From a virus (taxonomy: Duplodnaviria; Heunggongvirae; Uroviricota; Caudoviricetes): 64,000 bases of DNA. Location: positions 46,839-110,838 of the IMG/VR virus record IMGVR_UViG_3300008085_000025; one strand, written 5' to 3'. Positions 37,718-62,535 of the stretch are shown here, piece by piece. The notes below the pieces were generated by a model. That model was not told the origin of the DNA. It did not search any database and saw nothing but the letters and a program-made list of their open reading frames with translations. Made by a program: the position numbers and the translations under genes. How positions within the stretch are numbered: position 1 is the first letter of the stretch; every line of letters starts with the position of its first letter.

Positions 37718-37763
37718 GATAATTTGTATAGCTGTTCTGAATACTATTTATAGAATTCAAATA

Positions 37764-39463: not shown

Positions 39464-39482
39464 ATCTCCTTATTGTGTTGGA

Positions 39483-39773: not shown

Positions 39774-39822
39774 AGTTTTTCCTCATGTAAGATTTTAATT
39801 ATAAAAGCTTGGGCGTTATGGG

Positions 39823-40390: not shown

Positions 40391-40609
40391 CATGGTTATT
40401 TTTTGAATGCTATTACTATTTATCTTCAACAGCTTTCTTCTCTACGAATTCGTAGCGATTTGACAGGTATTCGTAGATGGCCTCCATTCCTATCTTGAGT
40501 CCCATCTCAAATTCCACTGTGTCTGTAAATTTATCGAGAAGCATTGGATTGGCTTTTTTCTCTTCTGCGATCTTTTCTTTGATACACTCTATTACGACTG
40601 AATCACTCA

Positions 40610-41221: not shown

Positions 41222-41619
41222 ACATCTCCAAAATGGGTTTTAATCAGATCGTCAACTTGTCCATCGTCAAACATTTCTATGATGTTCAACAGAATTGCTC
41301 TTTGAATACTGTCCATTTGGATTTTTTCGTCCACCAATGGTATCAGCTGACGAACAAGAAACTCTTTTTTATGATCTTCGAAAAATCTTCGATTGACTTC
41401 AGCAAGGTCTTCTTTGTTTCGGATACTACCATATTCTACAGTACCTTCCTTATCAGTAACGGCTTTGAACCGATAGGTATTGACATCTATCCATACTTGG
41501 ACATATGTCGATATCGTGTCAGAGTCTATTATCTGCTTAGAGAAGGTTTCTCTAGATAGGGGGTTTATTGAAAACCCAGCATCAATGAAATTTTGTTCTT
41601 CTATGTGTTTTACAAACAT
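41218..41619 (-). CDS. hypothetical protein
   Basis: 133-aa ORF. Confidence 0.45.
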   Translation of the reverse strand: MFVKHIEEQNFIDAGFSINPLSRETFSKQIIDSDTISTYVQVWIDVNTYRFKAVTDKEGTVEYGSIRNKEDLAEVNRRFFEDHKKEFLVRQLIPLVDEKIQMDSIQRAILLNIIEMFDDGQVDDLIKTHFGDV

Positions 41620-42143
41620 ACCTGCTCCTTTGTTATTGTTATTGCTTCTGGTTCTACTCTAATACCTTTAATCATGTCAAAGTAAACGACACCAACACCG
41701 GCTTCCCCAAACATTGTAACCGAATGAAACGCCGATTCACACCAATCCGAACTTCTCCTAGATAGAAAATCATGTAGCCCTTTTACATTAACCACCACGG
41801 TAGATATTCCAGTTTGGATGATACCTCTAGCACAGTCAGAACATGGTGGGTGTGTCGTGAATAGCCAACAGTCTTGAACAGAACTTCTACTCAAATCAAG
41901 AGCATTTCTTTCCGCATGAGCATAATAATGGTATTTCGTGGGGGCATAGTTTCTATTCAAAGAGCCATTCGAATCAGATTCATTGACGCCCATAGGAATT
42001 CCATTGTATCCCCATGAAACGGGTTTACCTTCCGGAGTCACTATCAAGGCCCCCACCTTCGTGGATTGGTCTTTTGACCATCCCGAAATTTCTTCAGCTA
42101 ATTTAAGATGACGGTACAACCATTTGTTGTCTTCTAGGTTCAT
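41610..42143 (-). CDS. cd: dCMP deaminase
   Basis: HAERNAL and PCSDCA zinc-binding motifs. Confidence 0.85.
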   Translation of the reverse strand: MNLEDNKWLYRHLKLAEEISGWSKDQSTKVGALIVTPEGKPVSWGYNGIPMGVNESDSNGSLNRNYAPTKYHYYAHAERNALDLSRSSVQDCWLFTTHPPCSDCARGIIQTGISTVVVNVKGLHDFLSRRSSDWCESAFHSVTMFGEAGVGVVYFDMIKGIRVEPEAITITKEQVCL

Positions 42144-42460
42144 TGTATCTTCCTAAAGAACTCTTGGATATTTTCCATCATGACACGTTTTTCAGATTTT
42201 GTCAATCGATTAGACCAATCCGCCAAGATCTTGTCGCCTTCATAGGAAAATTTTCCTATGAAGTGACCATTTGAACGAACAGAGAATGATTTTTCTTCAG
42301 TATGGAAGGTAAAAGATCTATTTTCTTTGTTGCCATCCACGTAGCTAAACATTATCATTCTTGGGGTTGTATTGACCTGCACCCCCGGTATTGGGTTTCT
42401 GTTGTTGGAACAATGTTGTAAAAAAGACGATATCGGATCGTCAACGTAAAATATATTCAT
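42140..42460 (-). CDS. hypothetical protein
   Basis: 106-aa ORF. Confidence 0.4.
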   Translation of the reverse strand: MNIFYVDDPISSFLQHCSNNRNPIPGVQVNTTPRMIMFSYVDGNKENRSFTFHTEEKSFSVRSNGHFIGKFSYEGDKILADWSNRLTKSEKRVMMENIQEFFRKIQ

Positions 42461-42477
42461 AGTTTGATTCTCTTTCG

Positions 42478-43017
42478 TTATTCTATGTTTATGTCAAACT
42501 CTTCACGAAGTCTCATGAAATGTTTGGCTTGTACAAGTGCGTCGTCTAAGGCGTTGTGATACACGGTTCGTTCCGGTTGATACTTGCACCGTGGGTCATA
42601 GATTCGCCCAATGGTTCTAAAACATCTTTTCTTTCGATAATGAAATAGTGGGATTGTATTATCTTCAGCAAACTGATTGTAAAAGTCTATGATTGCTGCC
42701 AAGTCCAAGTCCAAGTCGTGTGAGAGGATGATGTCGGCCTTGTCGAGTCTCCTAAGCTGTTCTATTGCATAATCTATACTAACGCGTGACTCTTGACTAA
42801 AAACGTCTCTCTTGGCCTCTGAGCTTTGTGTCATCCAGAAATTCAGTGTAGATACACTTAAACGCCTTCCCGCATCAATCTGCGGTTGGAGTTCCGGTAG
42901 TATATACAATTGTTTGGTTATTTCTTCATTGTCAAAAAACACAATACCTATACTGAGGATGCATGTCCTCGCGCTCGTATCTGTTGTTTCTATATCAATC
43001 ATTGCATATGTTGTCAT
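42478..43017 (-). CDS. DEDDh 3'-5' exonuclease (DnaQ-like; DexA/oligoribonuclease-like)
   Basis: AMIDIETTD Exo I motif and YHNALDDA Exo III motif. Confidence 0.75.
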   Translation of the reverse strand: MTTYAMIDIETTDTSARTCILSIGIVFFDNEEITKQLYILPELQPQIDAGRRLSVSTLNFWMTQSSEAKRDVFSQESRVSIDYAIEQLRRLDKADIILSHDLDLDLAAIIDFYNQFAEDNTIPLFHYRKKRCFRTIGRIYDPRCKYQPERTVYHNALDDALVQAKHFMRLREEFDINIE

Positions 43018-43020
43018 TTT

Positions 43021-43428
43021 TTATCCTCTTAGTGATTTTTTCAGTTTTTCTAATACGTCAGGTCTTTCTTCTTCTGAGAAATAAGATTTGTCCTTCTGGA
43101 TTGCATTTTCTATGCTACTAAAGAGACATAAAATTTCCGAAGCTATTTCCATTTCATTCATCGCATAATGACAATTTTTGCTAAAACACTCTTCATTAGA
43201 ATCGAATTCAAATTCGTGTTCTTCCATAAAAAGTCTTCCATGTGTAGAATTGAGAAAACAATACACGCAATCAGAAATAAAATCTACGTCCATTGTAAAT
43301 TTAATATGGACTTTGGTGTAAAGCGATAGACAATCTGTATGAACTGTACAGTTACTAACACCTGAACAAAGTCTTTTTATGTCATCAAAAAAACGATTGT
43401 CGTTATTATGGGGCAGCATGATTACCAA
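43021..43428 (-). CDS. DCL-motif family small protein (member 1)
   Basis: CTVHTDCLSLY. Confidence 0.45.
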   Translation of the reverse strand: MVIMLPHNNDNRFFDDIKRLCSGVSNCTVHTDCLSLYTKVHIKFTMDVDFISDCVYCFLNSTHGRLFMEEHEFEFDSNEECFSKNCHYAMNEMEIASEILCLFSSIENAIQKDKSYFSEEERPDVLEKLKKSLRG

Positions 43429-43946
43429 TATCCTTCAATTTTTTTACCAACCTGAATTATTTGAATAAAAGTTCTTTCAACAAGATCTTGCCATTCTGTC
43501 ACATTGAGATCAGTTTTAGTTTTATGCATAAGCTTGACTGTTATGGAATCTTTTAAGTCTATATTGTCAGTCTCTCGAAACGCGAACAAAAATTCATGGA
43601 AAAGAGGTTTTTTATGTGAGAAATGTGTTGGTGTTATTAATAACACATTAACCCATGTATCCCCGTATTCATCTACATAATCCCCCACACCCAATTCAGT
43701 AATACACAAATCTGACCTTGAAATATTTTTGCAAACCTGTTGTTCCATATTGTTGGAAAAAATAGCATCTAAACAATCAACCACATGCCCGAATTCATAA
43801 AAAATTATAAACCGAATCTGGTCCTTTCCAATAACATTACTTATTCCAACAAACTCGATTTCGTTCCCAAGTTCTTCGTTTTTAGGCTCGTCTCGGGTGC
43901 GAAAATTCATCATAGATTTTATTCTGTTTATAATATTCATTACCAA
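43422..43946 (-). CDS. DCL-motif family small protein (member 2)
   Basis: HVVDCLDAIFS; C-terminal GYW. Confidence 0.45.
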   Translation of the reverse strand: MVMNIINRIKSMMNFRTRDEPKNEELGNEIEFVGISNVIGKDQIRFIIFYEFGHVVDCLDAIFSNNMEQQVCKNISRSDLCITELGVGDYVDEYGDTWVNVLLITPTHFSHKKPLFHEFLFAFRETDNIDLKDSITVKLMHKTKTDLNVTEWQDLVERTFIQIIQVGKKIEGYW

Positions 43947-44410
43947 TAATCCGGGTTGATTTTTTCACACCAATCTAAAACGTTTTCTAAAACACAAATA
44001 TCATGTTCATTCATACGTAATCCTTCAGAAAATTTAAAATCCGTGTTTCTATCCGGATCGTTCACTGTCTGTTGGGCAGTTTCTAGTTCTTGGTCTACCG
44101 TAAAACTCATGTATCCACTAGCCATAGATATTACAAAGTGTATAATGTTTTCATCAATTATTGTTATCCTATAAACGTAATCGGTCGAAATGTCAAGATG
44201 TTCTTCTCTAAGTTGGTACACGGGATTTCTGGTAGACTCAATTAAATAATAGAGTTCATCAAATTTATTAGAAGTTCTAAGACAATCCCAAATGTCTTGG
44301 AATAGTTCGCACAACTCTATATTCAATTTTTTATTTTCTTCTTCTGTCATTTCCAATATTCCGGGAAATCTTTCTTCAATGCCCGTTCTATCACATTTAA
44401 CTCTGACCAA
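43940..44410 (-). CDS. DCL-motif family small protein (member 3)
   Basis: DIWDCLRTS...LIESTRNP; C-terminal DYW. Confidence 0.45.
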   Translation of the reverse strand: MVRVKCDRTGIEERFPGILEMTEEENKKLNIELCELFQDIWDCLRTSNKFDELYYLIESTRNPVYQLREEHLDISTDYVYRITIIDENIIHFVISMASGYMSFTVDQELETAQQTVNDPDRNTDFKFSEGLRMNEHDICVLENVLDWCEKINPDYW

Positions 44411-44832
44411 AAATAGGTAGCCATGGATGACGAAATGACCGGAACAGATGAATAATAGTCACCCGCAGACACGATTACGGCTTCACCTTCAATTGCACCT
44501 TCTTTTAAAACATAATATTGATTTTGGGATTTACGATTGGTTTCCAAATTTTCGTGTTGATGTTTAATTATGATCATATCATCTTCTACAATACTATATT
44601 CACATAATTTTTCTACGTCGTATACCGAGTCGTTGGTTCTTGTTTTAAGTATACGCCCATCAACAACAATCAATTCTCCGAACACACCCCCTAAAATGGT
44701 CCTCGAAAAGTCGCTATATTGATAATATTCAATATGATGAGAAGACAAACAATCCATAATATCTTCAAACCTTGTTAGAAGTTTGTGTGTGTCCATTTCG
44801 TATTGGTGTTCTTTGAATTTATCTTTTTTCAT
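44347..44832 (-). CDS. DCL-motif family small protein (member 4)
   Basis: DIMDCLSSH; C-terminal EYWK. Confidence 0.45.
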   Translation of the reverse strand: MKKDKFKEHQYEMDTHKLLTRFEDIMDCLSSHHIEYYQYSDFSRTILGGVFGELIVVDGRILKTRTNDSVYDVEKLCEYSIVEDDMIIIKHQHENLETNRKSQNQYYVLKEGAIEGEAVIVSAGDYYSSVPVISSSMATYFWSELNVIERALKKDFPEYWK

Positions 44833-45302
44833 AGCAAGTCCTCGTCTCTGAACCTAGACAATTCAGAAAATGATTCTTTGAGAAACTCTAAAAAGTTTTC
44901 AATTTCACCAGCAGAAAATGTTATAATTCTAACACTGTTTTCTTCCTTGGAGGTTGAACCAAAATGTGTTGTCAATATTAAACGGTAAACATCATTCTGG
45001 GCCGAATATCCACAAAAATATTTAAATTTTCGGTCGGTGGTGAGGTACATGATACTCGACTCAATCGAGGCACCGGTAGCCGTCTTGTTAATGTTGTTGT
45101 TGGTTTGATGGTTATATATTTCATCTTCCAGATAAGCTACAAGTTCAAGTTGTTCATCCAAGGCAGAAGGAAGAAGCAGCGTTCCCTTCAATCCTTCTTG
45201 CTGAATAAAAAAACTGTTGCAAGATTTTACCACCGATATCTCACGGCCACCAATTTCTTTTGTGTTGGAAATCATTCCATAAGCTCTTAGTCCCATAACC
45301 AA
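44829..45302 (-). CDS. hypothetical protein
   Basis: 157-aa ORF. Confidence 0.45.
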   Translation of the reverse strand: MVMGLRAYGMISNTKEIGGREISVVKSCNSFFIQQEGLKGTLLLPSALDEQLELVAYLEDEIYNHQTNNNINKTATGASIESSIMYLTTDRKFKYFCGYSAQNDVYRLILTTHFGSTSKEENSVRIITFSAGEIENFLEFLKESFSELSRFRDEDLL

Positions 45303-45326
45303 ATACTCCGTTCGGGACCAGTGATT

Positions 45327-45734
45327 TCATTTTTCATAATCATCATAATCATAGCTCCACAATAAAATTTGTGCCTCTTCGATGCATTTTTGTTCTTCTG
45401 GAGTGACAATACCAGATTTGTCTGATGCTATACGCAACAAGGTATCTATGTGACCTAAAAGTTCAATCAATTCCTTTTCATATGGATCAGCAAATTGTGA
45501 CCTAAAATCCTCTTGTGTAATACTAGGGACGTTATCGTTGAGAATAACTTCCCTCTCCACAACATTACACAGGGCAATCGCATCCGACATCCATCCAACT
45601 ATAATGGCATCTTCACCACACTCTTCTTTTGTTTGAATCACTTCCGGGTCTGCTTCAATGTTCCTTCGAAGTGATCTAATCAGACGAAGAAGATAATCTT
45701 TTCTAACTCCAGAAATATCACGGCTGTTTTTCAT
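45327..45734 (-). CDS. hypothetical acidic protein
   Basis: 135-aa ORF. Confidence 0.45.
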   Translation of the reverse strand: MKNSRDISGVRKDYLLRLIRSLRRNIEADPEVIQTKEECGEDAIIVGWMSDAIALCNVVEREVILNDNVPSITQEDFRSQFADPYEKELIELLGHIDTLLRIASDKSGIVTPEEQKCIEEAQILLWSYDYDDYEK

Positions 45735-46183
45735 CTTTTTGACTCCTTGAGATGTTTTAAAATGCTTTTAGAGTATTCATACATTGTCTTCAACATAATC
45801 CAAAAAATTATATTGAACGCGATCATACACAATGATTCTACGGTCCACCCAGCAGAAAAAAGCCACCAAGAGGTCGATAATACCAGAAAACCGTATGAGA
45901 CTGAACCCCAAAAATCATTAGCCAAATCTGTGTTTATTTCAATAGATGCACCACCATCAAAATTAGCTTTGAAACTGTTATCGTCTAACAATTCCAAATT
46001 ATATTTTGAGATGCTTTTATACATGATCCACAAACCAATAGAACCAAAAACAGAATTGAATAACAAATAAATCGTAGATATTGTTACGATTATATGAATA
46101 AATGTGTTGTCTACCACCATGTATGTTGCCAGTAGCAGAACACATGCCGATATACCCATAATGTGACTCGAAATATTTTTCAT
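45731..46183 (-). CDS. multi-pass membrane protein
   Basis: Four hydrophobic helices. Confidence 0.45.
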   Translation of the reverse strand: MKNISSHIMGISACVLLLATYMVVDNTFIHIIVTISTIYLLFNSVFGSIGLWIMYKSISKYNLELLDDNSFKANFDGGASIEINTDLANDFWGSVSYGFLVLSTSWWLFSAGWTVESLCMIAFNIIFWIMLKTMYEYSKSILKHLKESKR

Positions 46184-46204
46184 AATTTTTCCGTATTTTC
46201 CTTT

Positions 46205-46720
46205 TTACCAATAACCCTTTACGTTATCCCGCAACTCTCTTTGAATATCGTCTAGACAATTTTCCAAATTATCCCCAACACGAGTGATGTATTTTTGTGT
46301 TAATTGTTGTCTCGGTTCTTTGGCGTCCCCGGTCACAACAAATAAACCATTCTCGTCCCACTCAAACTTCCACAGCAGTATCGTGATTCTTGAATTAAGT
46401 ACTGTGTATATTTCTAAAACATTTTTTCCCAAATAAACGTCTGTTTTTATATCTTCCCCACCAACATTTATTTGACTAATCGAATAAGGGTTGCTTTCAA
46501 TTAGAACAGCATACTTCAGGCAATCGTAAATGTCAAGTATTTTCTCTTTTATAACTTCTATTTCTCGGACAATACACAATTTTGTTAAACCATCCGGATT
46601 AACGCTAGGATCGAACAGACGTAAAATTTTATCACACTCGGAGCATTGATAGTACATCCCCCATACCTTTGAAGGTTCAAGAATTTCCCAGTTACAATGG
46701 GTTTCATGTTTCATCACCAA
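46205..46720 (-). CDS. DCL-motif family small protein (member 5)
   Basis: DIYDCLKYAVLIESNPYS (cf. member 3); C-terminal GYW. Confidence 0.45.
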   Translation of the reverse strand: MVMKHETHCNWEILEPSKVWGMYYQCSECDKILRLFDPSVNPDGLTKLCIVREIEVIKEKILDIYDCLKYAVLIESNPYSISQINVGGEDIKTDVYLGKNVLEIYTVLNSRITILLWKFEWDENGLFVVTGDAKEPRQQLTQKYITRVGDNLENCLDDIQRELRDNVKGYW

Positions 46721-46869
46721 TACCCCGGATACCTTTTCTTTAACTCCAATACCAATAAACTCAGTTGATTTTTTATATCATTCAAAAAAACAAATTCTCA
46801 ATTATTTCAGTATTACCATGAATGGCACCATTGGGCCTAATTATAGAAAAAGAAAATGACCCAGTCGTG

Positions 46870-47202
46870 TCATCTAAAATAAATTTGTAAATCCCCCCCT
46901 ATACGCTGACCGCTCAAAGTGTAAGTAAGAGGAGATATAGAATATTTCTCAAAAACAACAACAGAATCGCTTAGCAAAAATGAAAACCTAGTACTACGTA
47001 AAAAGTTCCCGAGACTATCAAACGTCCCGTGACTGTGTACACAATCTATACAATCTTCTAAATCAGAAATAATACGTTCCCGTTCCCGTTCTCGTATACA
47101 GACAACCTGTTCCATCTCTTTCATAAAATTACCAATATCAATCATACTACGAAATACATCTTCACAAAATCTTGTCGGCTCACATAATTCGTCAGTGAAC
47201 AC
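46870..47202 (-). CDS. DCL-motif family small protein (member 6, CIDCV variant)
   Basis: EDCIDCVHSHG. Confidence 0.4.
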   Translation of the reverse strand: MFTDELCEPTRFCEDVFRSMIDIGNFMKEMEQVVCIRERERERIISDLEDCIDCVHSHGTFDSLGNFLRSTRFSFLLSDSVVVFEKYSISPLTYTLSGQRIGGDLQIYFR

Positions 47203-47501
47203 CGATCAACCTTACGCAACATCCCGTCTTCATGTTCCCTACAAATCACACGAAACGTCTTATCAACTTCCGACGCCATATCTTCAAAGTCCATTCGAAG
47301 AATTAACCATTCATCCTTCTCACTGTATTCCATACTTCGTAATGAATGCTGAATACAAAACATACATTCAGTCCCACGCGATATAATAGCATCCAAACAA
47401 TCCATGAAATGATCAAACGAAATCGATATAATAAATGGATTATTCAAATCATCATCCGATGAAGTCCTTCGAATCAATGGAAGTAAAACCTTATTAGTCA
47501 A
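47142..47501 (-). CDS. DCL-motif family small protein (member 7)
   Basis: HFMDCLDAIIS, near-identical motif to member 2. Confidence 0.4.
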   Translation of the reverse strand: MTNKVLLPLIRRTSSDDDLNNPFIISISFDHFMDCLDAIISRGTECMFCIQHSLRSMEYSEKDEWLILRMDFEDMASEVDKTFRVICREHEDGMLRKVDRCSLTNYVSRQDFVKMYFVV

Positions 47502-52286: not shown

Positions 52287-54587
52287 ATGAAATTGAATGT
52301 CGCCGGTTCGAAGGCTACTGGCTCTGCTGTTGCGGGATCGCAGCAATTTTCGATGGCAATGAATGCCAAGGCTTTTCATACTCTTTCGTCTACCCTCTAT
52401 AAGGACAAGTTTGGGGCTATTATTCGTGAAATTTGCTCCAATGCTTACGATGCTCATTTGATGGTCGGTACGCCTGAGCGTCCTTTCGTACTTACTTTTC
52501 CCGACCGTATTGATTCTGAATTGGTCATCCGTGATTTTGGCCCCGGTATTTCTCCCGACGACATTAGCGGCGTGTACTGCCGGTTCTTTGAATCGACCAA
52601 GGATCAAGACAATAACACCGTGGGGGCTTTTGGGTTGGGTTCTAAGACCCCGTTTGCGTATACTGATACCTTCGCCGTCACTTCGATCCACAAGGGCGTG
52701 AAGCGCATCTACACTGCCTTCAAGGATGAAGGGATGCCGAATCTCAAGTTGATGGCCGAAATGGAAACGGACGAGGAATCAGGTCTGGAAGTTTCCATCC
52801 CGGTTCAGGGCAAGGATATCAGCTCTTTCCACAATGCTGTCATTCGTGAACTGCGGTTTTTCCCAGTGAAGCCTGTATCGAATAGGCAATGGGATTGGGC
52901 TGATTGGGAAGTCGCGATGGATTTTGGTTCTGTCCAGTTTTTCAAGAGTCAGAATGCTGTCATGCGGGGCTTTTTTGTTCAGATCGGTCCGGTCGGATAT
53001 CGCATCGACAAAGGCATGATTACTGAATACGCTCAGAACAAGGGTATTTCCTTGTCTCCAATGACTAAGCATTTGTTAGAAATGTCTGTTGAACAAAGGT
53101 ACTACCACCCCGAGCGCCATAGCGCCATGTTGGACATGCCGATTGGCACAGTTGAAGTTCAGCCTAGCCGTGAAGGTTTGCACTATACTGACGAAACCTG
53201 TCAGAACATTCTTGATGCTATTGGCTCTGCCGAACAGAAGGTTGCCGATGAAATGGTTCAGCGTCTAGATAGTGCTTATGCTACGGGGTGTAAGACTTTC
53301 TTTGATACTGTAAATCAAATGCCACAGTTTTTGCGTGGGACGTTGACTAATATTACTGATTTTAAAAAGAACTACGAGCCGTTCTTCGTTGACCCGAGTG
53401 GTAATTTGAAGGTTGTGTGGGATACCAATATTGTTTCCTCTTGTACCCTTGGCAAGATTGATTTCGGCGACGAACGGGGCAGTGTTGTTAGAACTCCGCT
53501 GGTTTGGTCCGAGTACGACTATAAGAATAACAAGACTGTCAGATATGGAGGCATTGAATTGTTTAGGGCAGATCGGGTTTATATCAAGGATGAGGCGTTT
53601 GCATACAAGTCTCGTATGCATAATCATGATAATGATTCTCTCGTGTTGTACTTCATTGAACCGGCTGACGGACAATCTGTTGATGATCTGGTAGCATATT
53701 TTGAAAAGTTTTTCGAGGTTGTGCGGGTTAGCAGTTTGGACAAAAACGTTTCTCGTTCCAGAACCAGCATTACAGGTGGTAAGGTTCGTGCGTGGTTTGA
53801 TTTGGGAAAGTGGTTGGACACCAATTACGTTTCTCAATTTAGCCACAAACGTTCTTTGTATGCTCACAATGTCCAGTCGGTATTCGATGCGAATCTGAAT
53901 GACATTACTGAACCTACTGTAGTGCTTCGTACTCATAACAATTCATTAGTATATGATTGCGATGATGTCTATAACAAACTTTCCCTTGCCGCTATGCTTG
54001 GGGATGCTGGCTATAAGATCATTGCGATCCCGAAAAGTGTGAAATACGATAACGAAAACCTGTGTGAAATTGAGGAATTGACCGACGATCATCACCGGAT
54101 TCTGCGTGACCGGCTGACAGAAATTCAGGGCGCGCAAGCCTTGAATGTTTGTATCGACTTCGTTTGTTCATTCAACGCATCGGTTCGAAGTATGGTAGAT
54201 CGAAAGTGGTTGAAAGGCACGGTCGAGGATTACGGGTTTGATGATGAAGCGTTCCGTAAAGCTCAGGACTCATTACCGATGATGAATCCTATGCGGAGAC
54301 ATGGGGATTTGGAAATTGTCGAGGCTATTGTTGGTTCAGCTACAAAATACCAGAACATGGACGAACTCTTCGAAGTCGCGAATAAGATGACTGGAATTGA
54401 TTATGTTCCTTCCAAAATGTTGGAAAAAATCGAAAATGAAGTTTCGTTGCAGACTATTATGATGGAATATTTTAATAGAAACAACTACATTGTCGAGGCA
54501 ATTTTCATCAGCAAGGGTTATCCGATGGTAGATGAGACTTTTTCTATTGATTTCAAACCTAAAATTCTGGAATTGGTAGAAAAGTAA
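52287..54587 (+). CDS. rIIA: rIIA protein (GHKL ATPase-fold N-terminus)
   Basis: KAFHTLSSTLYKDKFGAIIREICSNAYDAH, RDFGPGIS and GAFGLGSKTPF track T4 rIIA [38 protein letters not shown] and GGFGLGSKSPF. Confidence 0.9.
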   Translation: MKLNVAGSKATGSAVAGSQQFSMAMNAKAFHTLSSTLYKDKFGAIIREICSNAYDAHLMVGTPERPFVLTFPDRIDSELVIRDFGPGISPDDISGVYCRFFESTKDQDNNTVGAFGLGSKTPFAYTDTFAVTSIHKGVKRIYTAFKDEGMPNLKLMAEMETDEESGLEVSIPVQGKDISSFHNAVIRELRFFPVKPVSNRQWDWADWEVAMDFGSVQFFKSQNAVMRGFFVQIGPVGYRIDKGMITEYAQNKGISLSPMTKHLLEMSVEQRYYHPERHSAMLDMPIGTVEVQPSREGLHYTDETCQNILDAIGSAEQKVADEMVQRLDSAYATGCKTFFDTVNQMPQFLRGTLTNITDFKKNYEPFFVDPSGNLKVVWDTNIVSSCTLGKIDFGDERGSVVRTPLVWSEYDYKNNKTVRYGGIELFRADRVYIKDEAFAYKSRMHNHDNDSLVLYFIEPADGQSVDDLVAYFEKFFEVVRVSSLDKNVSRSRTSITGGKVRAWFDLGKWLDTNYVSQFSHKRSLYAHNVQSVFDANLNDITEPTVVLRTHNNSLVYDCDDVYNKLSLAAMLGDAGYKIIAIPKSVKYDNENLCEIEELTDDHHRILRDRLTEIQGAQALNVCIDFVCSFNASVRSMVDRKWLKGTVEDYGFDDEAFRKAQDSLPMMNPMRRHGDLEIVEAIVGSATKYQNMDELFEVANKMTGIDYVPSKMLEKIENEVSLQTIMMEYFNRNNYIVEAIFISKGYPMVDETFSIDFKPKILELVEK

Positions 54588-54608
54588 GATGAAAAGTGGT
54601 GAAGGGGC

Positions 54609-54637
54609 TTGACCAAGTCCCTGATACCTGATAGAAT
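54609..54637 (+). promoter_or_regulatory. sigma70-type promoter TTGACC-N17-TAGAAT (rIIB)
   Basis: Boxes with 17-nt spacer in the rIIA-rIIB gap. Confidence 0.5.
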
Positions 54638-54668
54638 GTAATTTCCACAACTACATAGGAGAAGTGAA

Positions 54669-55769
54669 ATGAGTGGTATCAACTTTATCAAGACCGGACA
54701 GAACCTTACCGTGTTTATCGACGGTCGTCCGATCACGTTTCCGCTGACAGACCATCGTATTGAGGATGTTCTTGAAGCGATCCGCAATGATGATGAACAG
54801 GCTATCCGGCAACTGATCAACTTCAAGCAGACTGTAGCGAATGTCTCGGAAGGTCGCATCAAATTTGATCCGATGACTCGGACCCTGACTTTCAAGGGTG
54901 AGCCGCTGCATAATGCGATCATTGATCGTTTGTGTGCGTTGTTCGAAGAACGTCTGCCAATCAAGAACCTTCTTCGATTCCTTGACAATTTGATGGAAAA
55001 CCCGGACTATCGTGCGGTGAATGAATTGTATCGCTTCATCGAAGCGTGTGATCTTCCCATCACCCCCGATGGTCATTTCCTCGCTTACAAGATCGTTCGT
55101 CAAGACTATATGGACATTTACAGTGGTCAGTTCGACAACCACGTGGGTCAGATTCCGACCATGGACCGCAACAGGGTCAATCCTGATTCTAATCAGACTT
55201 GTTCTTCTGGTTTGCACGTTTGTTCTAAGAGGTATCTCCCGCAATATGGTGGATTCTTCGGTAAAAGTTCCGATACCAGAATCATGGTTGCTAAGGTTCA
55301 TCCTCGTGACGTGGTTGCGGTTCCGATGGATTACAATAACGCCAAAATGCGTGTTTGCCGCTATGAGGTCGTGGATGAAATTCCTTACGATGAAGTAATG
55401 ACCGATCTTCGGATGTCTGGCTACGTCATCGACAGTTACGGCGCACTTGATGAAGATTTTGAGGATGGGTGTGATGATGACTCCGTAGATGATTCATTCG
55501 AAGAATTCGAAGAAGATTGGAGCGGCATTGGGGAAGAAACCGGGGAAGAAGCTGAGGAAGAAGCTGAGGACGTTATTGTCACTAGTAATACCCCAAGTCG
55601 CCCCGCAGTCACCGGGAAGCTGACGAAGCATCAGGTTCGCGATATTGACCGTCTGCTGCTCGATGGTGAAATGTCTATCGCTTCCATCGGTCGTCTCTAC
55701 AACGTCAACGAATCGACCATTCGCAAGATTCGCGATGGTTTGATCTGGACCCACGTTACTGGACGATAA
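54669..55769 (+). CDS. rIIB: rIIB protein
   Basis: CSSGLHVCSKRYLPQYGG...VAKVHPRDVVAVPMDYNNAKMRVCRYEVVDE matches the T4 rIIB C-terminal core. Confidence 0.9.
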   Translation: MSGINFIKTGQNLTVFIDGRPITFPLTDHRIEDVLEAIRNDDEQAIRQLINFKQTVANVSEGRIKFDPMTRTLTFKGEPLHNAIIDRLCALFEERLPIKNLLRFLDNLMENPDYRAVNELYRFIEACDLPITPDGHFLAYKIVRQDYMDIYSGQFDNHVGQIPTMDRNRVNPDSNQTCSSGLHVCSKRYLPQYGGFFGKSSDTRIMVAKVHPRDVVAVPMDYNNAKMRVCRYEVVDEIPYDEVMTDLRMSGYVIDSYGALDEDFEDGCDDDSVDDSFEEFEEDWSGIGEETGEEAEEEAEDVIVTSNTPSRPAVTGKLTKHQVRDIDRLLLDGEMSIASIGRLYNVNESTIRKIRDGLIWTHVTGR

Positions 55770-56232: not shown

Positions 56233-56317
56233 GCCGAGGTCGCATAGTCTGGTCGATTGCACTGGCTTTGTAACCCAGTATTCCACACCGTAGGTTCAAA
56301 TCCTACCCTCGGCACCA
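56233..56317 (+). tRNA. tRNA, anticodon probably UGU (Thr), atypical 11-nt unpaired variable region
   Basis: Acceptor GCCGAGG/CCTCGGC, T-arm GTAGG-TTCAAAT-CCTAC, A-CCA encoded; anticodon arm CTGGC-TTTGTAA-CCCAG has one C-C mismatch; 85 nt. Confidence 0.55.
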
Positions 56318-56583: not shown

Positions 56584-57237
56584 ATGGATTTCGGGAAATA
56601 TTCCCGATCCAGAAAGATTCAAAGTTCTGACAGGAAAAATCTGGATGCGTTGCGTGAAAAATTTCAAAAGTATTTGGACGAAGGGATGCCCGGTAACGTG
56701 GTTGCTCTGGTGGATCGCAAGCACAACGTCATGTTTGACCCTGACGTACATACCACCAAAGATGTTTTGGATTGGTTGTGGTGGTGTAAGAAAAAAGACA
56801 ACGATGCGGCAGTAACACAAAAGGTTTATAATTCGTGGCCAAATGCCAAGTACAATTTACCTTCTACGGTCTTTAACGACTTTGTGTCGTATTATGACCA
56901 CATGAATCAACAAAAAACATACGGGATGGAAATTCGTGTAAGAAAGAATACCAGTTTTGAAGAATTCGAAAAATCGTTGAATATGCTTCTCGACAACTAC
57001 GAACTTACCCACAAGGTTGGGTGTAAAAATCGTAAAGGTGTTGGGATCACATTGTATACGAACGACGGATTTGCTTCCGGAGTGAATTACCTGATCATGC
57101 TGGATCGTGATAAAGACGAGTGGATGCTAGGTAAACTAAGTTACAGTTCTATGTCTCAGGACTGTCCTCCGACTTCACTAAAAGATTGTTTCGAAAAAAT
57201 TATCAACCGAGGTTATACGTATGATCCAGAATGGTGA
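56584..57237 (+). CDS. hypothetical protein
   Basis: 217-aa ORF. Confidence 0.45.
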   Translation: MDFGKYSRSRKIQSSDRKNLDALREKFQKYLDEGMPGNVVALVDRKHNVMFDPDVHTTKDVLDWLWWCKKKDNDAAVTQKVYNSWPNAKYNLPSTVFNDFVSYYDHMNQQKTYGMEIRVRKNTSFEEFEKSLNMLLDNYELTHKVGCKNRKGVGITLYTNDGFASGVNYLIMLDRDKDEWMLGKLSYSSMSQDCPPTSLKDCFEKIINRGYTYDPEW

Positions 57238-57715
57238 CAAAGCAAGACTTCTAGATGATTACACTAGAATGCAGAAAAAACATCTTACCAATGCTCTATT
57301 CGAGATTTCAGTTCAAGGTCGAAAGGAAACCCATTGGTGTTGGTATTTTTTTCCTAACATTCCCGGATTGGGGAGCAGTGAAAGGGCGAAGCACTACGCT
57401 ATCGATCTGGACACCTACATGTTGTTCCTACAGAACCAGAATTTTCGGCGGAACATCTTCACGATGATCAAGGCGGTGGACACTGCGTATCGCACCAGCG
57501 TTCATATGGACCTTGAGTACATCTTCGGGGACAATCCTGTGGATGTTCTTAAGTGGAGGTCCTGTCTGACACTGACACGGTTGGCGTATATGAACATCGA
57601 TCATTTGCATGATGATTGGACACATATCAGTACCATTATCAAGTACTCGCGGGATGTGTATGGCTTCTGTGAGAAAACTATAGAGGAATATCGACCGAAA
57701 GATGCAGTGGATTGA
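57221..57715 (+). CDS. hypothetical protein
   Basis: 164-aa ORF. Confidence 0.45.
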   Translation: MIQNGDKARLLDDYTRMQKKHLTNALFEISVQGRKETHWCWYFFPNIPGLGSSERAKHYAIDLDTYMLFLQNQNFRRNIFTMIKAVDTAYRTSVHMDLEYIFGDNPVDVLKWRSCLTLTRLAYMNIDHLHDDWTHISTIIKYSRDVYGFCEKTIEEYRPKDAVD

Positions 57716-58338: not shown

Positions 58339-58581
58339 ATGGAAAACAGCAGCGTGTCCTACACTTTGACCTCAATCCTCATCACTGTATTCATGTTGCC
58401 GGTGGATATTGTTATTGCTATCTTTGGTGATGACCCGGATACTTTTCGGTTCTACATTGGAATTCTTTTCGTCTTTGCATACTGCGTTCTCATTGGCATT
58501 TTGGGCACCATCGCGGTAGTTTTTGTCATTCTTTCGGGGTTTCACATGCTGGGAATGATCTTGTTCGAGTGGTTCCCGTGA
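58339..58581 (+). CDS. small membrane protein
   Basis: Two hydrophobic helices. Confidence 0.4.
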   Translation: MENSSVSYTLTSILITVFMLPVDIVIAIFGDDPDTFRFYIGILFVFAYCVLIGILGTIAVVFVILSGFHMLGMILFEWFP

Positions 58582-59213
58582 TGAGAATGTTGGGAGAAAT
58601 CCCAGAACGGGTCAATGTGGCGGTTTCTGGTGGGGTAGATTCTATGGTCCTTCTTGACTTTTTAATCAACGGTCGTAGGAAGATCAATGTGTTGCACTAT
58701 CATCATGGGACGGAACACGCCGACGACGCTTTTTCTTTCGTCAAAAATGTTTCTGAATCCTTGGGCGTGGGGTTTATTTCTGATGAACTTCGTGATCCCG
58801 TTCCCGAAAAGAGGTCCAAAGAAGATTTCTGGCGTGAACGTCGATATTCATTTTTCGACAGGGCAGAAAAACACGGATATCCGGAACCTATTTTACTGGC
58901 GCATCATCTTGATGATGTTTTAGAAACTTGGCTGTTTTCCAGTTTTCACGGAACACCTAAGATCGTTCCGTACATGCGGGGAAATTGTTTTCGGCCTATG
59001 TTGATGGCTAAGAAAGAAGAAATTTTGGAATGGGCAGAGCGTAATTCTGTTCCTTATATCAATGATCCTTCAAACGAGAATACTGGATTCATGCGAAACA
59101 AGATTCGTCATGAGCTTGTCCCCAAGGTTCTCGAAGTCAATCCGGGAATTCATAAAGTTCTTGCAAAGAAGGTACAAGAGCAGTATAATTCACTGATACA
59201 GTTAAGTGGTTGA
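58569..59213 (+). CDS. tilS: PP-loop ATP pyrophosphatase, TilS-like (tRNA(Ile)-lysidine synthetase catalytic domain)
   Basis: VAVSGGVDSMVLLDFL (SGGxDS PP-loop) and HHLDDVLETWLF (cf. TilS HHLDDQAETFL); short single-domain form. Confidence 0.65.
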   Translation: MVPVMRMLGEIPERVNVAVSGGVDSMVLLDFLINGRRKINVLHYHHGTEHADDAFSFVKNVSESLGVGFISDELRDPVPEKRSKEDFWRERRYSFFDRAEKHGYPEPILLAHHLDDVLETWLFSSFHGTPKIVPYMRGNCFRPMLMAKKEEILEWAERNSVPYINDPSNENTGFMRNKIRHELVPKVLEVNPGIHKVLAKKVQEQYNSLIQLSG

Positions 59214-59272
59214 CAAGAATATAAAAGCGTGACACAATCAACCATACGATTAAACTAACAGGAGAACACACA

Positions 59273-59683
59273 ATGAACATTTCAAAGAACAGCCAAGTTT
59301 ATTCTTTTTTGCATCGGTATGGGGAGTTCTGGGAACCGGCCAACCCGTACTATATCAACAATCTTTGCCAACTATGGACTCGCCTAGCCATATTAACCTT
59401 CTGTCTAATTGCATTTGGGACATTGGCGGGAATGTTCGTCCTAGGAACAATTCAGTTGGTGGTGGTTTTATTTGGTGGCCCGTTTATTTTCTTTACGTTC
59501 GCTCTTTGGGCGTTAATTGTCTGGATAATTATTACAACAATGGCGGCATGTGTGGGGTTTGCGTACAGTATCCAACTTTGGGAAAAATCTACTAATTCGG
59601 AACCGGGAATCATCCGGGAAACTATTAGTGGTTGGAAGAATAAGTATTGTCCAACTGTAAATTGGGTTGATAGAAACAATTAA
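59273..59683 (+). CDS. membrane protein
   Basis: Three hydrophobic helices. Confidence 0.45.
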   Translation: MNISKNSQVYSFLHRYGEFWEPANPYYINNLCQLWTRLAILTFCLIAFGTLAGMFVLGTIQLVVVLFGGPFIFFTFALWALIVWIIITTMAACVGFAYSIQLWEKSTNSEPGIIRETISGWKNKYCPTVNWVDRNN

Positions 59684-59725
59684 AACGATTACTACTTTGT
59701 TCTTTGATGGAAGAACGTTAAGTAG

Positions 59726-59754
59726 TTGACAGGTTTTGATCTTGGTGGTAGTAT
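59726..59754 (+). promoter_or_regulatory. sigma70-type promoter TTGACA-N17-TAGTAT driving tRNA-Arg
   Basis: -10 ends 10 nt before the tRNA 5' end. Confidence 0.6.
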
Positions 59755-59764
59755 AAAAATAATA

Positions 59765-59840
59765 GCCCTTTTGGTGTAACTGGATAGCACAAGGGATTTC
59801 TACTCCCTTAGTATGGGTTCGAGTCCTGTAGAGGGTGCCA
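59765..59840 (+). tRNA. tRNA-Arg (UCU)
   Basis: Acceptor GCCCTTT/AGAGGGT, D-arm GTGT/GCAC, anticodon arm AGGGA-TTTCTAC-TCCCT, T-arm ATGGG-TTCGAGT-CCTGT, discriminator G, CCA encoded; 76 nt. Confidence 0.8.
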
Positions 59841-59897
59841 TTATTACAAACTCTCGACTAACATATAAATAAAAAGTATGTTAGTCGAGAGGGCTTC

Positions 59898-60533
59898 ATG
59901 AAGAAATTTATCGCACTTGAAAAGAGTACTAGGGTTTGGGAGGATAAACATTTGGGGTACATGGTGGTGTATGCTCCCTATCACCCGATGTCGAACAAAT
60001 CTGGAAAATTATATTATCACCGCTATGTTGTTGCAGAAAGCCTTCAAAGAAATCTACTACCAACAGAGGTAGTTCATCACAAAGACGGAAATAGGAAAAA
60101 TAACAGCCTCAATAATTTAGAAATAACAGATATTTCGGTGCATGCTAGAGGGCATATAGAAGAACGTGGCGTTACACTAAACGGATATGAACTTATGTCT
60201 GATAATGAAAAGCACTCAGTGTGTCAGATGTGTGGGAATAAATTTAAAAGAAATTCCAGAAAAAGAAAAAAATATTGTAGTAAAAGATGTGCCGCAGAAT
60301 CCTCAAGGAAAATAAGTATAAAGCCTGAAGTTTTGAAAGAACTTATTTGGTTGACATCCACCTCAAATCTTGCTAGTATTATGGGTATATCAGATTCAGC
60401 CATAGGTAAATATTGTAAAAAACACGGAATCATTAAACCTCCGGTTGGCTATTGGGCAAAGAACAAAGAATTGTCTCAAGATGAATCTGGAAGATTAAAA
60501 CTTTTACTAAGTCAAATTCAAGGAACAATGTAA
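59898..60533 (+). CDS. HNH homing endonuclease
   Basis: VVHHKDGNRKNNSLNNLEI HNH core; next to a tRNA gene. Confidence 0.75.
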   Translation: MKKFIALEKSTRVWEDKHLGYMVVYAPYHPMSNKSGKLYYHRYVVAESLQRNLLPTEVVHHKDGNRKNNSLNNLEITDISVHARGHIEERGVTLNGYELMSDNEKHSVCQMCGNKFKRNSRKRKKYCSKRCAAESSRKISIKPEVLKELIWLTSTSNLASIMGISDSAIGKYCKKHGIIKPPVGYWAKNKELSQDESGRLKLLLSQIQGTM

Positions 60534-60979
60534 TGTTTAATTTAAGCATCATCGACCAAATGAGAGATATCGTCCGGGAGATGGATGACATTTCTAATTT
60601 AGGATTGGATCTCGCAACATGGTTGCCAGAAAGTATCTATTCGCGTAGGGCTTTTGGTGATTGTGGTTGCTCTGATAAGGTTTTTCGTGATACCGCAGAC
60701 CTTCTAACGTCTGCTGTCAAACTGATTTCAGCCATTCACTATCAGCCAACTCTTTCCGATCTGGAACATTACAAGGGGACTGGTGAGGTTCCGGAACAGT
60801 TAAAAGTTCTTGATGTGGATAACTACAAGTGGGAATGGCATAATTCACACAGTCAATTCTTTACTCAGGATTCTATTATTCATGAGGATTACAAGCCCGA
60901 ATGGGACCATTTAGCCGAATCGTATCGAGAACTTTTCGCTCTCAAGATTAAACAGCTTGAAAGTCTGGAAAATTCCTGA
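60533..60979 (+). CDS. hypothetical protein
   Basis: 148-aa ORF. Confidence 0.4.
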   Translation: MFNLSIIDQMRDIVREMDDISNLGLDLATWLPESIYSRRAFGDCGCSDKVFRDTADLLTSAVKLISAIHYQPTLSDLEHYKGTGEVPEQLKVLDVDNYKWEWHNSHSQFFTQDSIIHEDYKPEWDHLAESYRELFALKIKQLESLENS

Positions 60980-61054
60980 TATACTGTAATCTCAAACCAA
61001 ACAGGAGTAATAAAAAATGAGCACAGGTTCTGTAGTATTTCTTCTTTATATATT

Positions 61055-61459
61055 TTGACGATGGTAGATAATTTTCGTTCTGTCGCAACGGGCGTGATTG
61101 CTGTGTCTGGGTTTTCGTTGCTTTCGTTGTTGCTTTTTAGTCTTATCTTTAGTGATCTTAAGGGCCGTACTTTCATGAAAACTTTGTGGGAAAAGGGTGC
61201 TCTGATCATTCTTTCATTTTTCTTGATTGGTGGCCTTATGGTAAAAACATTCGTACCAGACCGCGAAGGTGTCGTTATTATTGTTGCTGGTGCGCTTGGT
61301 TATGAAGGTGCGCTCAACATGGTTAACAGCGAACATGTACAGTCTGTTGGTAGCAAGAGTTTCGAACTATTGGAATCATGGTTGAATCAACAGATTGAAG
61401 AAATCAACACTGAGAAGGATGAACCCGAAATTAAAGGAGAAAACAATGGGAACCCCTAG
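61055..61459 (+). CDS. membrane protein
   Basis: Hydrophobic helices. Confidence 0.4.
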   Translation: MTMVDNFRSVATGVIAVSGFSLLSLLLFSLIFSDLKGRTFMKTLWEKGALIILSFFLIGGLMVKTFVPDREGVVIIVAGALGYEGALNMVNSEHVQSVGSKSFELLESWLNQQIEEINTEKDEPEIKGENNGNP

Positions 61460-61850
61460 TGTAATTCATTTCAAAGAACGTAGTGAATACCAAGTGCGCC
61501 ATATTGCCAGTGTCTATCAGCAGTATGATGGTTACCCCGATAGTGTGGGTGTGACTTTGGCAGAGTTTTTGTCTGGTATCAAAATCATCCATGGTATTGG
61601 TTCAGATGCTCGCCTCGGAACCCATGCGAACGGACCGGGCTGCTTGGTTGCCCAGTTCATCGCCCAGAATAAGGATCGTGTCGGAGGTTTGTATATGACT
61701 GACGAGGGCGACTCACAAGATTATGACTATACTGTATATTTTCGGGAACCAGACAATGCTCTCGTTGTGAAAGTCGAGGAAATCACTTGCAACAAGTGGA
61801 GTGGAACTCTTGCAGAATTTGTCGAATTCTGCAAGTCTGGGGATGATTGA
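61446..61850 (+). CDS. hypothetical protein
   Basis: ORF 61395..61850; start moved to ATG after AAAGGAGAAAAC RBS. Confidence 0.45.
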   Translation: MGTPSVIHFKERSEYQVRHIASVYQQYDGYPDSVGVTLAEFLSGIKIIHGIGSDARLGTHANGPGCLVAQFIAQNKDRVGGLYMTDEGDSQDYDYTVYFREPDNALVVKVEEITCNKWSGTLAEFVEFCKSGDD

Positions 61851-61884
61851 GCTTTGAAGATTTTCAACTTAAAGGAGAAAAACA

Positions 61885-62292
61885 ATGGCATACTGGCAAG
61901 GTACGGGTCGTAGTAATGTGTTCAAAGTCAAAGACCTAGATAAGTTTTTTGAAGATATGGGTTCTCTTGACATTGAATTGCATGTTGTTGACGAGGAAAC
62001 TAACGAAGTCAAGATTTTTTCTTCAGGAGACGGGAACTTTCCTGCCAATTACTTCGACGATGACTTGGGTGATTATGTAGATGTAGATATTCAAGATATT
62101 ATTCAGAAGCACTTGACAGATGACTCTTGCTGTGTGTTGATAGAGGTAGGTAATGAAAATTTTCGTTATCTTACTGGTTGGTCTTGCGCAATTACCAGTA
62201 AACAAATGGAGTTTATCAACCTAGATCAAATTTATCAGGTTGCGGCTAAGATGGCAGGTGGTTCACTTAAAGTGGGTCTAGCAGCGTATTAA
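61885..62292 (+). CDS. hypothetical acidic protein
   Basis: 135-aa ORF with AAAGGAGAAAAAC RBS. Confidence 0.45.
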   Translation: MAYWQGTGRSNVFKVKDLDKFFEDMGSLDIELHVVDEETNEVKIFSSGDGNFPANYFDDDLGDYVDVDIQDIIQKHLTDDSCCVLIEVGNENFRYLTGWSCAITSKQMEFINLDQIYQVAAKMAGGSLKVGLAAY

Positions 62293-62310
62293 TTGCTGAG
62301 TGATTCCTTC

Positions 62311-62338
62311 TTGACAAGGGTAATAAATAGGGTATAAT
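62311..62338 (+). promoter_or_regulatory. sigma70-type promoter TTGACA-N16-TATAAT
   Basis: Consensus boxes upstream of tRNA(CAU). Confidence 0.55.
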
Positions 62339-62458
62339 GATCTCATGTTGATGGTCTAAAGTAACATTGTCTCAAAGTCAAGACCGGCATACGGAAGAGT
62401 GTATGTTTTACTTTGAGAATAATTCAAAAACAGGATTTGGGGTGGGTGGATAAGATTT

Positions 62459-62535
62459 GGGACCGTAGCTCAATCGGTTAGAGCGTCCGACTCATAATCG
62501 GCAGGTTGGAGGTTCGAGTCCTCCCGGTCCCACCA
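62459..62535 (+). tRNA. tRNA with CAU anticodon (Met elongator-like or Ile2/lysidine)
   Basis: GGGACCG/CGGTCCC acceptor, GCTC-AATCGGTTA-GAGC D-arm, CTCATAA anticodon loop, GGAGG-TTCGAGT-CCTCC T-arm, ACCA; close to E. coli tRNA-Met(elong). Confidence 0.8.

Follow-up and report, generated by a model that had tools for sequence, protein, structure and literature searches.

TilS enzymes, the tRNA-Ile2 lysidine synthetases, are currently viewed as needing one or two C-terminal domains (CTDs) to hold tRNA-Ile2 and to distinguish it from tRNA-Met. We describe here a tilS gene that ends after the catalytic domain and lies upstream of a gene for a CAU-anticodon tRNA in 64,000 nucleotides (nt) of Caudoviricetes DNA (IMG/VR record IMGVR_UViG_3300008085_000025, positions 46,839 to 110,838), the whole of which is called the window below. 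Its source is a large T4-like or jumbo-type phage. From the sequence we predict that this phage carries its own two-part device for decoding AUA, composed of an Ile2-type CAU tRNA and a catalytic-domain-only lysidine synthetase, and we give this reading a probability of roughly 0.78.

Two cellular TilS architectures are distinguished in a 2025 paper in the Journal of Biological Chemistry (JBC). Type I enzymes carry CTD1 and CTD2, and type II enzymes, about 30% of the total, lack CTD2. Type II proteins, which keep CTD1, measure about 300-320 amino acids (aa) and type I proteins about 430-470 aa. The C-terminal domains of both types contact the anticodon stem and the acceptor stem of the tRNA (2025 JBC paper or its companion study). 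Type I enzymes also make demands on the acceptor stem, namely C4:G69 and C5:G68 in E. coli, where C4:G69 is a TilS determinant (JBC 2025), and G3:C70 in B. cenocepacia. Without CTD2, the B. cenocepacia enzyme is sharply reduced in activity and no longer discriminates the 3:70 base pair (companion study). The best sequence match of the window protein is the type II TilS of A. aeolicus (PDB: 1WY5/2E21/2E89, E = 1.5e-17), with which it has in common the catalytic PP-loop domain and the motifs SGGxDS, HxLDD..E, RP, D.SN and RN.IR. Bacterial TilS keep CTD1 or both CTDs, whereas the window protein has neither and is at most 37% identical to cellular TilS.

The first phage TilS was reported in 2019 for MIJ3/PA5oct (Wroclawvirus) with the remark "function unknown". 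The available part of that paper lists three "tRNA-Met" genes and neither links them to TilS nor comments on missing domains. The PA5oct/MIJ3 protein belongs to the same short family as the window protein and is encoded a few kb from a tRNA cluster containing CAU tRNAs with an anticodon arm like that of E. coli ileX. It is a distant relative (203 aa, 38% identity over 96% of the length) with no similarity at the DNA level, and in PA5oct three CAU tRNAs lie 7-10 kb upstream. Two of them (27559-27635 and 28040-28116 in locus L002; MK797984 positions 267558 and 268039) have identical D, anticodon (ileX-like) and T arms combined with different acceptor stems, CCCUCGG with C3:G70 and GGGACUU with G3:C70. 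The third (L002, 30168) has a C1:A72 mismatch and is initiator-like. Among other phages, Ralstonia phage RsoM2USA has an annotated TilS of 349 aa, longer than the 210 aa of the window protein. A tRNA(Ile)-lysidine synthetase is noted in one sentence for the pelagimyophage group PMP-A (Zaragoza-Solas et al. 2020), with no architecture or tRNA linkage given in the accessible text. The phages of that group are uncultured marine T4-like phages, and their enzymes possibly belong to the short family.

The tRNA half of the device also has precedents. T4-like phages carry CAU tRNAs with Ile sequence signatures according to the available parts of the literature, and the CAU tRNA of T4 itself is annotated as tRNA-Ile. 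For a vibriophage tRNA(CAU), lysidine at position 34 (k2C34) was shown by mass spectrometry. Both are phage-encoded CAU tRNAs that read AUA through lysidinylation, as proposed for the window. No phage TilS is reported for T4-like phages or that vibriophage in the portions available, so the host TilS is presumed to modify their tRNAs, whereas the window phage brings its own. Outside phages, a tilS-trnI(CAU) module is described from green-algal plastids (PMC13494906, available in part), where the modifying enzyme and the CAU tRNA appear to have been retained together in a reduced genome. TilS genes are also reported from giant viruses, again in partly available sources, and these viruses and RsoM2USA would extend such joint retention to mobile genomes.

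Earlier work had thus recorded TilS in phages (PA5oct/MIJ3, pelagimyophages) and, separately, phage-encoded tRNA-Ile2 (T4-like phages). The domain-less architecture and the coupling of tilS to a CAU tRNA in phages appear to be undescribed in the open-access literature, as far as its available text goes, and an earlier description is possible. A natural catalytic-domain-only TilS coupled to a CAU tRNA would make the minimal recognition requirement for tRNA-Ile2 directly testable, and adds the phage case of a virus that carries a tRNA plus the enzyme conferring the identity of that tRNA. A small pair of enzyme and tRNA that switches a codon reader could also serve codon reassignment work. If the enzyme is inactive or the tRNA is a tRNA-Met, the finding shrinks to the annotation of an ordinary auxiliary gene.

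The short TilS family

The locus comprises the following elements, listed with the evidence for each.

58581..59213, + strand: short tilS, TilS catalytic (PP-loop) domain only, 210 aa (TIGR02432, PF01171, AF2/Foldseek)
58626..58643, + strand: PP-loop ATP-binding motif SGGVDS, residues 20-25 of the 214-aa reading (translation)
58902..58925, + strand: HHLDDVLE block, a TilS signature, residues 112-119 (translation, alignment)
62459..62535, + strand: tRNA with anticodon CAU, predicted Ile2 type, CCA encoded (ARAGORN; Rfam RF00005, 73.8 bits)

The open reading frame (ORF) at 58569-59213 on the + strand yields 214 aa when read from GTG 58569. ATG 58581 is probably the real start, giving 210 aa, because the TGA of the upstream ORF overlaps it as TGATG, because the Joint Genome Institute (JGI) called that start on an identical metagenome contig, and because the alignment of the short-TilS family starts there too. 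The original prediction, made from the letters of the window, had noted an SGGxDS PP-loop and an HHLDD...ET.L block in this ORF, and both are found in the translation. SGGVDS aligns with the PP-loop of the solved TilS structures, and residues 112-122 read HHLDDVLETWL. Among 37 family members, S20, G21, G22, D24 and S25 of the PP-loop are invariant, as are H112, L114, D115, D116 and E119 of the second block. HHLDDVLE aligns to "ahhlndllet" of A. aeolicus, "aqhlddqcet" of E. coli and "ghhgddqvet" of G. kaustophilus TilS. The PP-loop and the blocks HxLDD..E, RP, D.SN and RN.IR align residue by residue with 1wy5, 1ni5 and 3a2k, and the PP-loop, HxLDD..E, RP, D..N and RN.IR motifs do not vary within the short family.

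Profiles and structure agree with the earlier claim that this PP-loop ORF is of the TilS type. The NCBIfam equivalog TIGR02432 (lysidine_TilS_N) reaches 123.4 bits, above its curated cutoff of 93.6, and matches at profile positions 2-189 of 189. It also matches all 37 scanned relatives at E <= 1e-5. The Pfam PP-loop family PF01171 matches the window ORF with E = 2.9e-34. A sequence search of the PDB returned three solved TilS (A. aeolicus, E. coli MesJ and G. kaustophilus) and no other matches, and PHROGs gave generic PP-loop matches for the protein without a dedicated family. The AlphaFold (AF2) model of the short TilS, based on an alignment of 37 family sequences from which the PA5oct sequence was left out, has a pLDDT of 95.4 and a pTM of 0.91. 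Its top Foldseek match is A. aeolicus TilS (2e21, TMq 0.81, 28% identity). TilS structures, with those of A. aeolicus and E. coli among the best, occupy all of ranks 1-5 (TMq 0.78-0.81), and TtuA and TtcA-like structures rank lower. From the profiles and the predicted structure we conclude that the window ORF belongs to the TilS catalytic-domain family.

The window TilS stops after the catalytic domain (210/214 aa), and CTD1 and CTD2 are both absent. The model of full-length TilS, NF007942, reaches 65.5 bits where its cutoff is 606, and is matched only at positions 18-208 of 439, in line with the prediction of a protein that is catalytic domain only. We conclude from these alignments that the enzyme, though in the catalytic-domain family, fits neither the type I nor the type II architecture. 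A search with a hidden Markov model of the C-terminal regions of 78 bacterial TilS found no separately encoded CTD in the six-frame translation of the 64-kb window (best E = 0.39). The tilS gene differs from that of a 73%-identical relative by a nonsynonymous distance (dN) of 0.21 with a saturated synonymous distance (dS), so the dN/dS ratio is not computable at these sites. The low dN with saturated dS fits purifying selection on tilS, without quantifying it.

Short TilS proteins form a large viral family. A search of 5.8 billion proteins gave 1,145 matches at E <= 1e-5, of which the best 120 measure 195-220 aa, except one of 292 aa, and lie on contigs of up to 343 kb. In IMG/VR, where a single-sequence query matched nothing and an alignment-based query recovered the family, at least 507 viral contigs of up to 371 kb encode relatives. 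Among 50,697 phage records, the short form occurs only in the PA5oct/MIJ3 Pseudomonas jumbo phages and two uncultured phages of about 640 kb.

A survey of 185,579 bacterial and archaeal species, with one genome per species, found the short form at two loci only. One encodes 207 aa in a "Halobacteriovorax" metagenome-assembled genome (MAG; contig PBIO01000016.1, L092) and the other 206 aa in a Pelagibacteraceae single-cell assembly (contig CACHXE010000024.1, L093). Both of these nominally cellular genes have a CAU tRNA 300-530 nt downstream, at 311 nt in the Pelagibacteraceae contig. The two contigs are probably phage DNA that was binned or co-sorted with cells, and they could hint at hosts. 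All other cellular matches are at most 37% identical and represent ordinary TilS of 295-514 aa, plus one of 223 aa. The 78 cellular relatives span 223-514 aa with a median of 442. Since only two short loci occur among these species and the rest are ordinary TilS, the short form is essentially viral.

The CAU tRNA and its linkage to tilS

A CAU-anticodon tRNA had been noted about 3.2 kb downstream of the ORF, and ARAGORN and Rfam place its start 3,246 nt after the tilS stop. It has the pairs G1:C72, G3:C70, A4:U69, C5:G68, C11:G24 and U12:A23, an anticodon stem with U27.C43, C29:G41 and G30:C40, the loop CUCAUAA and the discriminator A73. We classified it with published discriminators, labelled references from E. 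coli and T4, and the set of tilS-adjacent tRNAs described below.

Across 5,288 E. coli genomes, the best match of the window tRNA is the CAU tRNA-Ile gene between mug and nfeF, which we take to be the ileX locus. Global identity is 74% to ileX, 68% to metT and 56% to the tRNA-Ile of T4, so the suggestion that the tRNA body resembles elongator tRNA-Met did not hold. The anticodon arm UCCGA-CUCAUAA-UCGGC has C29:G41, G30:C40 and A31:U39 in common with ileX, unlike E. coli tRNA-Met, which has U29:A41 and C30:G40. C29:G41 and U12:A23 are reportedly among the E. coli isoleucyl-tRNA synthetase (IleRS) identity elements found by Nureki and colleagues.

The window tRNA also carries pairs that are diagnostic in a classification of 1,070 CAU tRNAs, which found G3/A3 or C70/T70 in tRNA-Ile(CAU) but in no Met or fMet tRNA, C4:G69 and C5:G68 to be frequent in tRNA-Ile(CAU), and A11:T24 and G12:C23 to be markers of fMet (Silva et al. 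2006). It has the Ile-only G3:C70, and C5:G68 is present as well. Initiator features are missing, as position 1 is paired with 72 (G1:C72) and A11:T24 and G12:C23 are absent. Its GGGAC acceptor stem recurs in the tilS-adjacent tRNAs of two other loci (L078 and L084) and in the second CAU tRNA of PA5oct (CAU2).

The genomic neighbourhood of short tilS genes was surveyed with ARAGORN on 80 IMG/VR loci (up to 10 kb on each side of tilS), which contain 69 distinct tilS sequences. No anticodon is more common in these loci than CAU. In 24 of the 69 distinct loci, tilS has a CAU tRNA no more than 150 nt away on its own strand, usually 19-67 nt downstream, and this is often the sole tRNA of the 20 kb examined. 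Within that distance of tilS, CAU accounts for 24 of 34 tRNAs, compared with 16 of 257 elsewhere in the loci (Fisher p = 5.5e-17). The adjacent CAU tRNAs have the following features.

G3 or A3: 20 of 24
C4:G69: 17 of 24
C5:G68: 22 of 24
G30:C40: 21 of 24
non-Watson-Crick 27:43 pair: 20 of 24

The window tRNA has four of these (G3, C5:G68, G30:C40 and the non-Watson-Crick 27:43 pair) and not C4:G69. The 27:43 pair is U27.C43 in the window tRNA and G27.U43 in E. coli ileX. A covariance model was built from 22 tilS-adjacent tRNAs with the window tRNA excluded, and gave these scores.

window CAU tRNA: 96.5 bits, the highest of 219 matches
its ortholog in the sister phage (L090): 96.1 bits
PA5oct CAU2: 88.3 bits
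E. coli ileX: 87.3 bits
E. coli metT/metU: 76.5 bits
second CAU tRNA of the sister phage: 65.3 bits
T4 tRNA-Ile: 63.8 bits
PA5oct CAU3 (C1:A72, initiator-like): 49.0 bits

With G3:C70, ileX as its best E. coli match and the top score in this model, the tRNA is classified on its sequence features as Ile2 type, and as neither Met nor fMet, which settles in favour of Ile2 what the original prediction had raised as a possibility.

The proposed pair and its alternatives

AUA is in demand in the window. A simple ORF-based codon set (87 ORFs, 55.7 kb of the window), which is approximate and may include false ORFs, contains AUA as 29% of the Ile codons, a heavy use of AUA by the phage genes. This corresponds to about 21 per 1000 codons, and AUA is as frequent as AUG. 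The other three tRNAs of the window read the A-ending codons ACA, GUA and AGA, which are common too. Median AUA usage across 78 tilS-bearing viral loci is 19.5 per 1000 codons, and the PA5oct region reaches 54. The values given for bacteria are 0.6 in B. cenocepacia, 2.9 in G. kaustophilus and 4.9 in E. coli, assumed to be per 1000 codons (JBC 2025). The pair may explain how some AT-rich phages sustain 20-50 AUA per 1000 codons, perhaps while infecting hosts in which this codon is rare.

We propose that the phage would transcribe the Ile2-type CAU tRNA, and that the short TilS would use its PP-loop and ATP to adenylate cytidine 34 at C2 before attaching lysine to form lysidine. As in the established TilS pathway, lysidine would move the tRNA from AUG and charging by methionyl-tRNA synthetase to AUA and charging by IleRS. 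The AUA-rich phage genes would thereby gain more AUA-reading tRNA-Ile, independently of the amount or specificity of the host TilS. An enzyme of its own could benefit the phage in that cellular TilS can be slow, varies in efficiency and, in type I, demands particular acceptor-stem pairs. Since the short enzyme has no C-terminal domains, it would have to recognize the tRNA through the anticodon arm, and with such a reader the tRNA would function in whichever host is infected, even when highly expressed. We infer the catalytic activity, the tRNA or tRNAs modified, the mode of recognition and the benefit to the phage. Transcription has one lead from a consensus scan.

62311..62338, + strand: candidate sigma-70-type promoter, TTGACA-16-TATAAT, 12/12, about 120 nt upstream of the CAU tRNA

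Promoter-like sites in the region number 20 against 17 expected from shuffling, which is not above chance. Several further matches of 10-11/12 with TTGACA precede other genes at 56-63 kb.

We speculate further that the viral proteins of about 200 aa are a third class of lysidine synthetase, a free catalytic domain that recognizes the anticodon arm only. Together with the adjacent tRNA it would make up a portable, host-independent AUA cassette that has spread through many large phages. We hold this broader reading tentatively, and rather doubt it in its full extent. Candidate recognition marks are G30:C40 and the non-Watson-Crick 27:43 pair below the CUCAUAA loop. It would follow that the acceptor stem may go unread by the enzyme, and that further CAU tRNAs with this anticodon arm could be substrates too.

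Several observations weigh against a self-contained AUA-decoding pair. Cellular TilS reportedly requires its one or two C-terminal domains for a hold on the tRNA, and deletion of CTD2 is harmful, so a catalytic domain by itself may work slowly or depend on a partner. At 4:69 the window tRNA has A:U in place of the C4:G69 often seen in tRNA-Ile2. Six ORFs and a tRNA-Arg separate the two genes, which lie 3.2 kb from each other. Of the 69 distinct loci, 34 lack a CAU tRNA up to 10 kb from tilS, so some short TilS may serve a distant phage tRNA or the host tRNA-Ile2. The adjacent tRNAs used to train the covariance model carry no identity labels themselves, and the low score of T4 tRNA-Ile (63.8 bits) means that the model captures one Ile2 lineage and not all of them.

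The alternative that survives best, which we still consider unlikely, is that the domain-less protein is not self-sufficient. It could need a tRNA-binding partner from the phage or the host, or be a degenerate remnant or a tRNA-binding regulator. The use of C-terminal domains for tRNA contact by type I and type II enzymes, and the dramatic loss of activity on removal of CTD2, speak for such a limitation. Decay is argued against by catalytic motifs that are invariant over a family exceeding 1,000 protein clusters. A split TilS would show as a recurring neighbour, and no neighbouring gene is conserved across 83 short-tilS loci. The most frequent one recurs in 27 of 83, which is lineage synteny. 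That result and the lack of a CTD-like sequence in the 64-kb window argue against a partner encoded nearby, with a host partner or a non-homologous one falling outside both checks.

A second alternative takes the CAU tRNA to be an ordinary elongator tRNA-Met that neighbours tilS merely through a tRNA-rich region, with the phage TilS serving the host tRNA-Ile2 only. ARAGORN labels the tRNA as tRNA-Met from its anticodon, and A4:U69 in place of C4:G69, the roughly half of short-tilS loci without a nearby CAU tRNA, some of whose enzymes may serve a host tRNA, and the distance of 3.2 kb with other tRNAs close by are all compatible with this idea. Four tRNAs lie within 6.3 kb, so the spacing in the window proves nothing by itself. 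The gap holds a 136-aa ORF, tRNA-Arg(UCU), four ORFs without a Pfam match and an endonuclease gene.

59898-60533, + strand: HNH endonuclease ORF (PF13392, 26.6 bits), between tilS and the CAU tRNA

This HNH ORF may have inserted as a mobile element and so widened the gap. In a relative whose TilS is 74% identical, a CAU tRNA with an identical acceptor stem follows 1 kb downstream of tilS, and another relative with 53% TilS identity has an ortholog of the CAU tRNA 5.3 kb downstream. Given the 1-kb spacing, the 3.2 kb in the window looks like the same linkage loosened by inserted ORFs. The gene order of this sub-lineage is rIIA, rIIB, ..., DUF1810, ..., tilS, a small ORF and tRNA-Arg(UCU).

The tRNA itself argues more directly against a Met identity. 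G3:C70 is reported to be absent from Met and fMet tRNAs (Silva et al. 2006), the best E. coli match is ileX and not metT, and the tRNA tops the tilS-adjacent model with a lead of 20 bits over E. coli tRNA-Met. The sister phage L090 encodes an ortholog of the window tRNA plus a second, different CAU tRNA that fits Met better and has C3:G70, U30:A40 and a Watson-Crick 27:43 pair. We therefore regard the elongator tRNA-Met alternative as quite improbable and retain the Ile2-type tRNA as one half of the pair.

A third alternative is that an enzyme that does not read the acceptor stem is promiscuous and lysidinylates host CAU tRNAs (elongator Met, perhaps also initiator), which would cripple AUG decoding in the host as a tool of takeover. 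This idea is compatible with the loss of 3:70 discrimination in the CTD2-deleted B. cenocepacia TilS. It also accords with the PA5oct pair of CAU tRNAs that differ in the acceptor stem and are identical in the D, anticodon and T arms, since an anticodon-arm reader would treat both alike. It is pure inference, however, and the phage itself needs to decode Met. The anticodon-stem features of the adjacent tRNAs, G30:C40 and the non-Watson-Crick 27:43 pair, are absent from E. coli tRNA-Met, which suggests that discrimination through the anticodon arm is possible. We consider promiscuity as a weapon very improbable.

The weakest alternative, that the ORF encodes another PP-loop enzyme (TtcA, a TtuA/Ncs6-type thiolase, QueC or a PAPS reductase) and no lysidine synthetase, draws on weak secondary Pfam matches (PAPS_reduct 26.6 bits, QueC 15.6 bits, with MnmA and ThiI also marginal at the PP-loop level), 42.1 bits for the TtcA model, a 27-bit PADLOC match of QueC to the PP-loop portion only and TtuA structures at Foldseek ranks 6-20, and can be set aside with near certainty because the NCBIfam scores are far under their cutoffs (TtcA 42.1 against 272, QueC 13.7 against 150.3, TtuA 12 against 450), whereas the TilS N-domain model exceeds its own and all 37 scanned relatives match TilS models. 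The window protein has one Cys (C139), in a variable alignment column, so the Fe-S ligands of TtcA and TtuA and the Zn site of QueC are missing. QueC and TtcA, which the original prediction had named as competing placements, are thus rejected, and the profile searches place the ORF in TilS.

Other features of the window

A megablast search with 56-64 kb of the window against the 50,697 phage records gave no match, so the phage is without a close sequenced relative. ARAGORN finds four tRNAs and one transfer-messenger RNA (tmRNA) in the window. The tmRNA is of the permuted, two-piece type (21519-21971, +), with the tag peptide AANDADFDSNANGFALAA according to ARAGORN. The Rfam model RF04321 (tmRNA_permuted) matches at 21552-21880 with 60.9 bits against a gathering score of 47. 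tRNA-Thr(UGU) (56233-56317, +; Rfam 53.3 bits) measures 85 nt and its variable region about 11 nt, which is unusual for a Thr tRNA. Its counterpart in a related locus (L089) has the normal 74 nt.

The phage encodes an NAD salvage pair on the + strand, a cytidyltransferase/NMNAT-Nudix fusion (9258-10358) and a nicotinamide phosphoribosyltransferase (11187-12617). There is also an NAD-dependent DNA ligase (18882-20762, +). Genes for rIIA-like (766 aa) and rIIB-like (366 aa) proteins (52287-55769, +) are situated upstream of the tRNA and tilS genes. Among isolates, the Xanthomonas jumbo phages Xoo-sp13 and XacN1 have the closest rIIA, at 41% identity, and the best phage BLAST match of the CAU tRNA is also in Xoo-sp13. 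A DUF1810 protein (65 bits; 57221-57715, +) is encoded two genes upstream of tilS and is conserved in three related loci (L088, L089 and L174). The region 31668-47501, mostly coded on the - strand, contains a block of about 25 short minus-strand ORFs, with a lower GC content (0.35-0.39) and a reversed GC skew, amid a window that is otherwise coded on the + strand.

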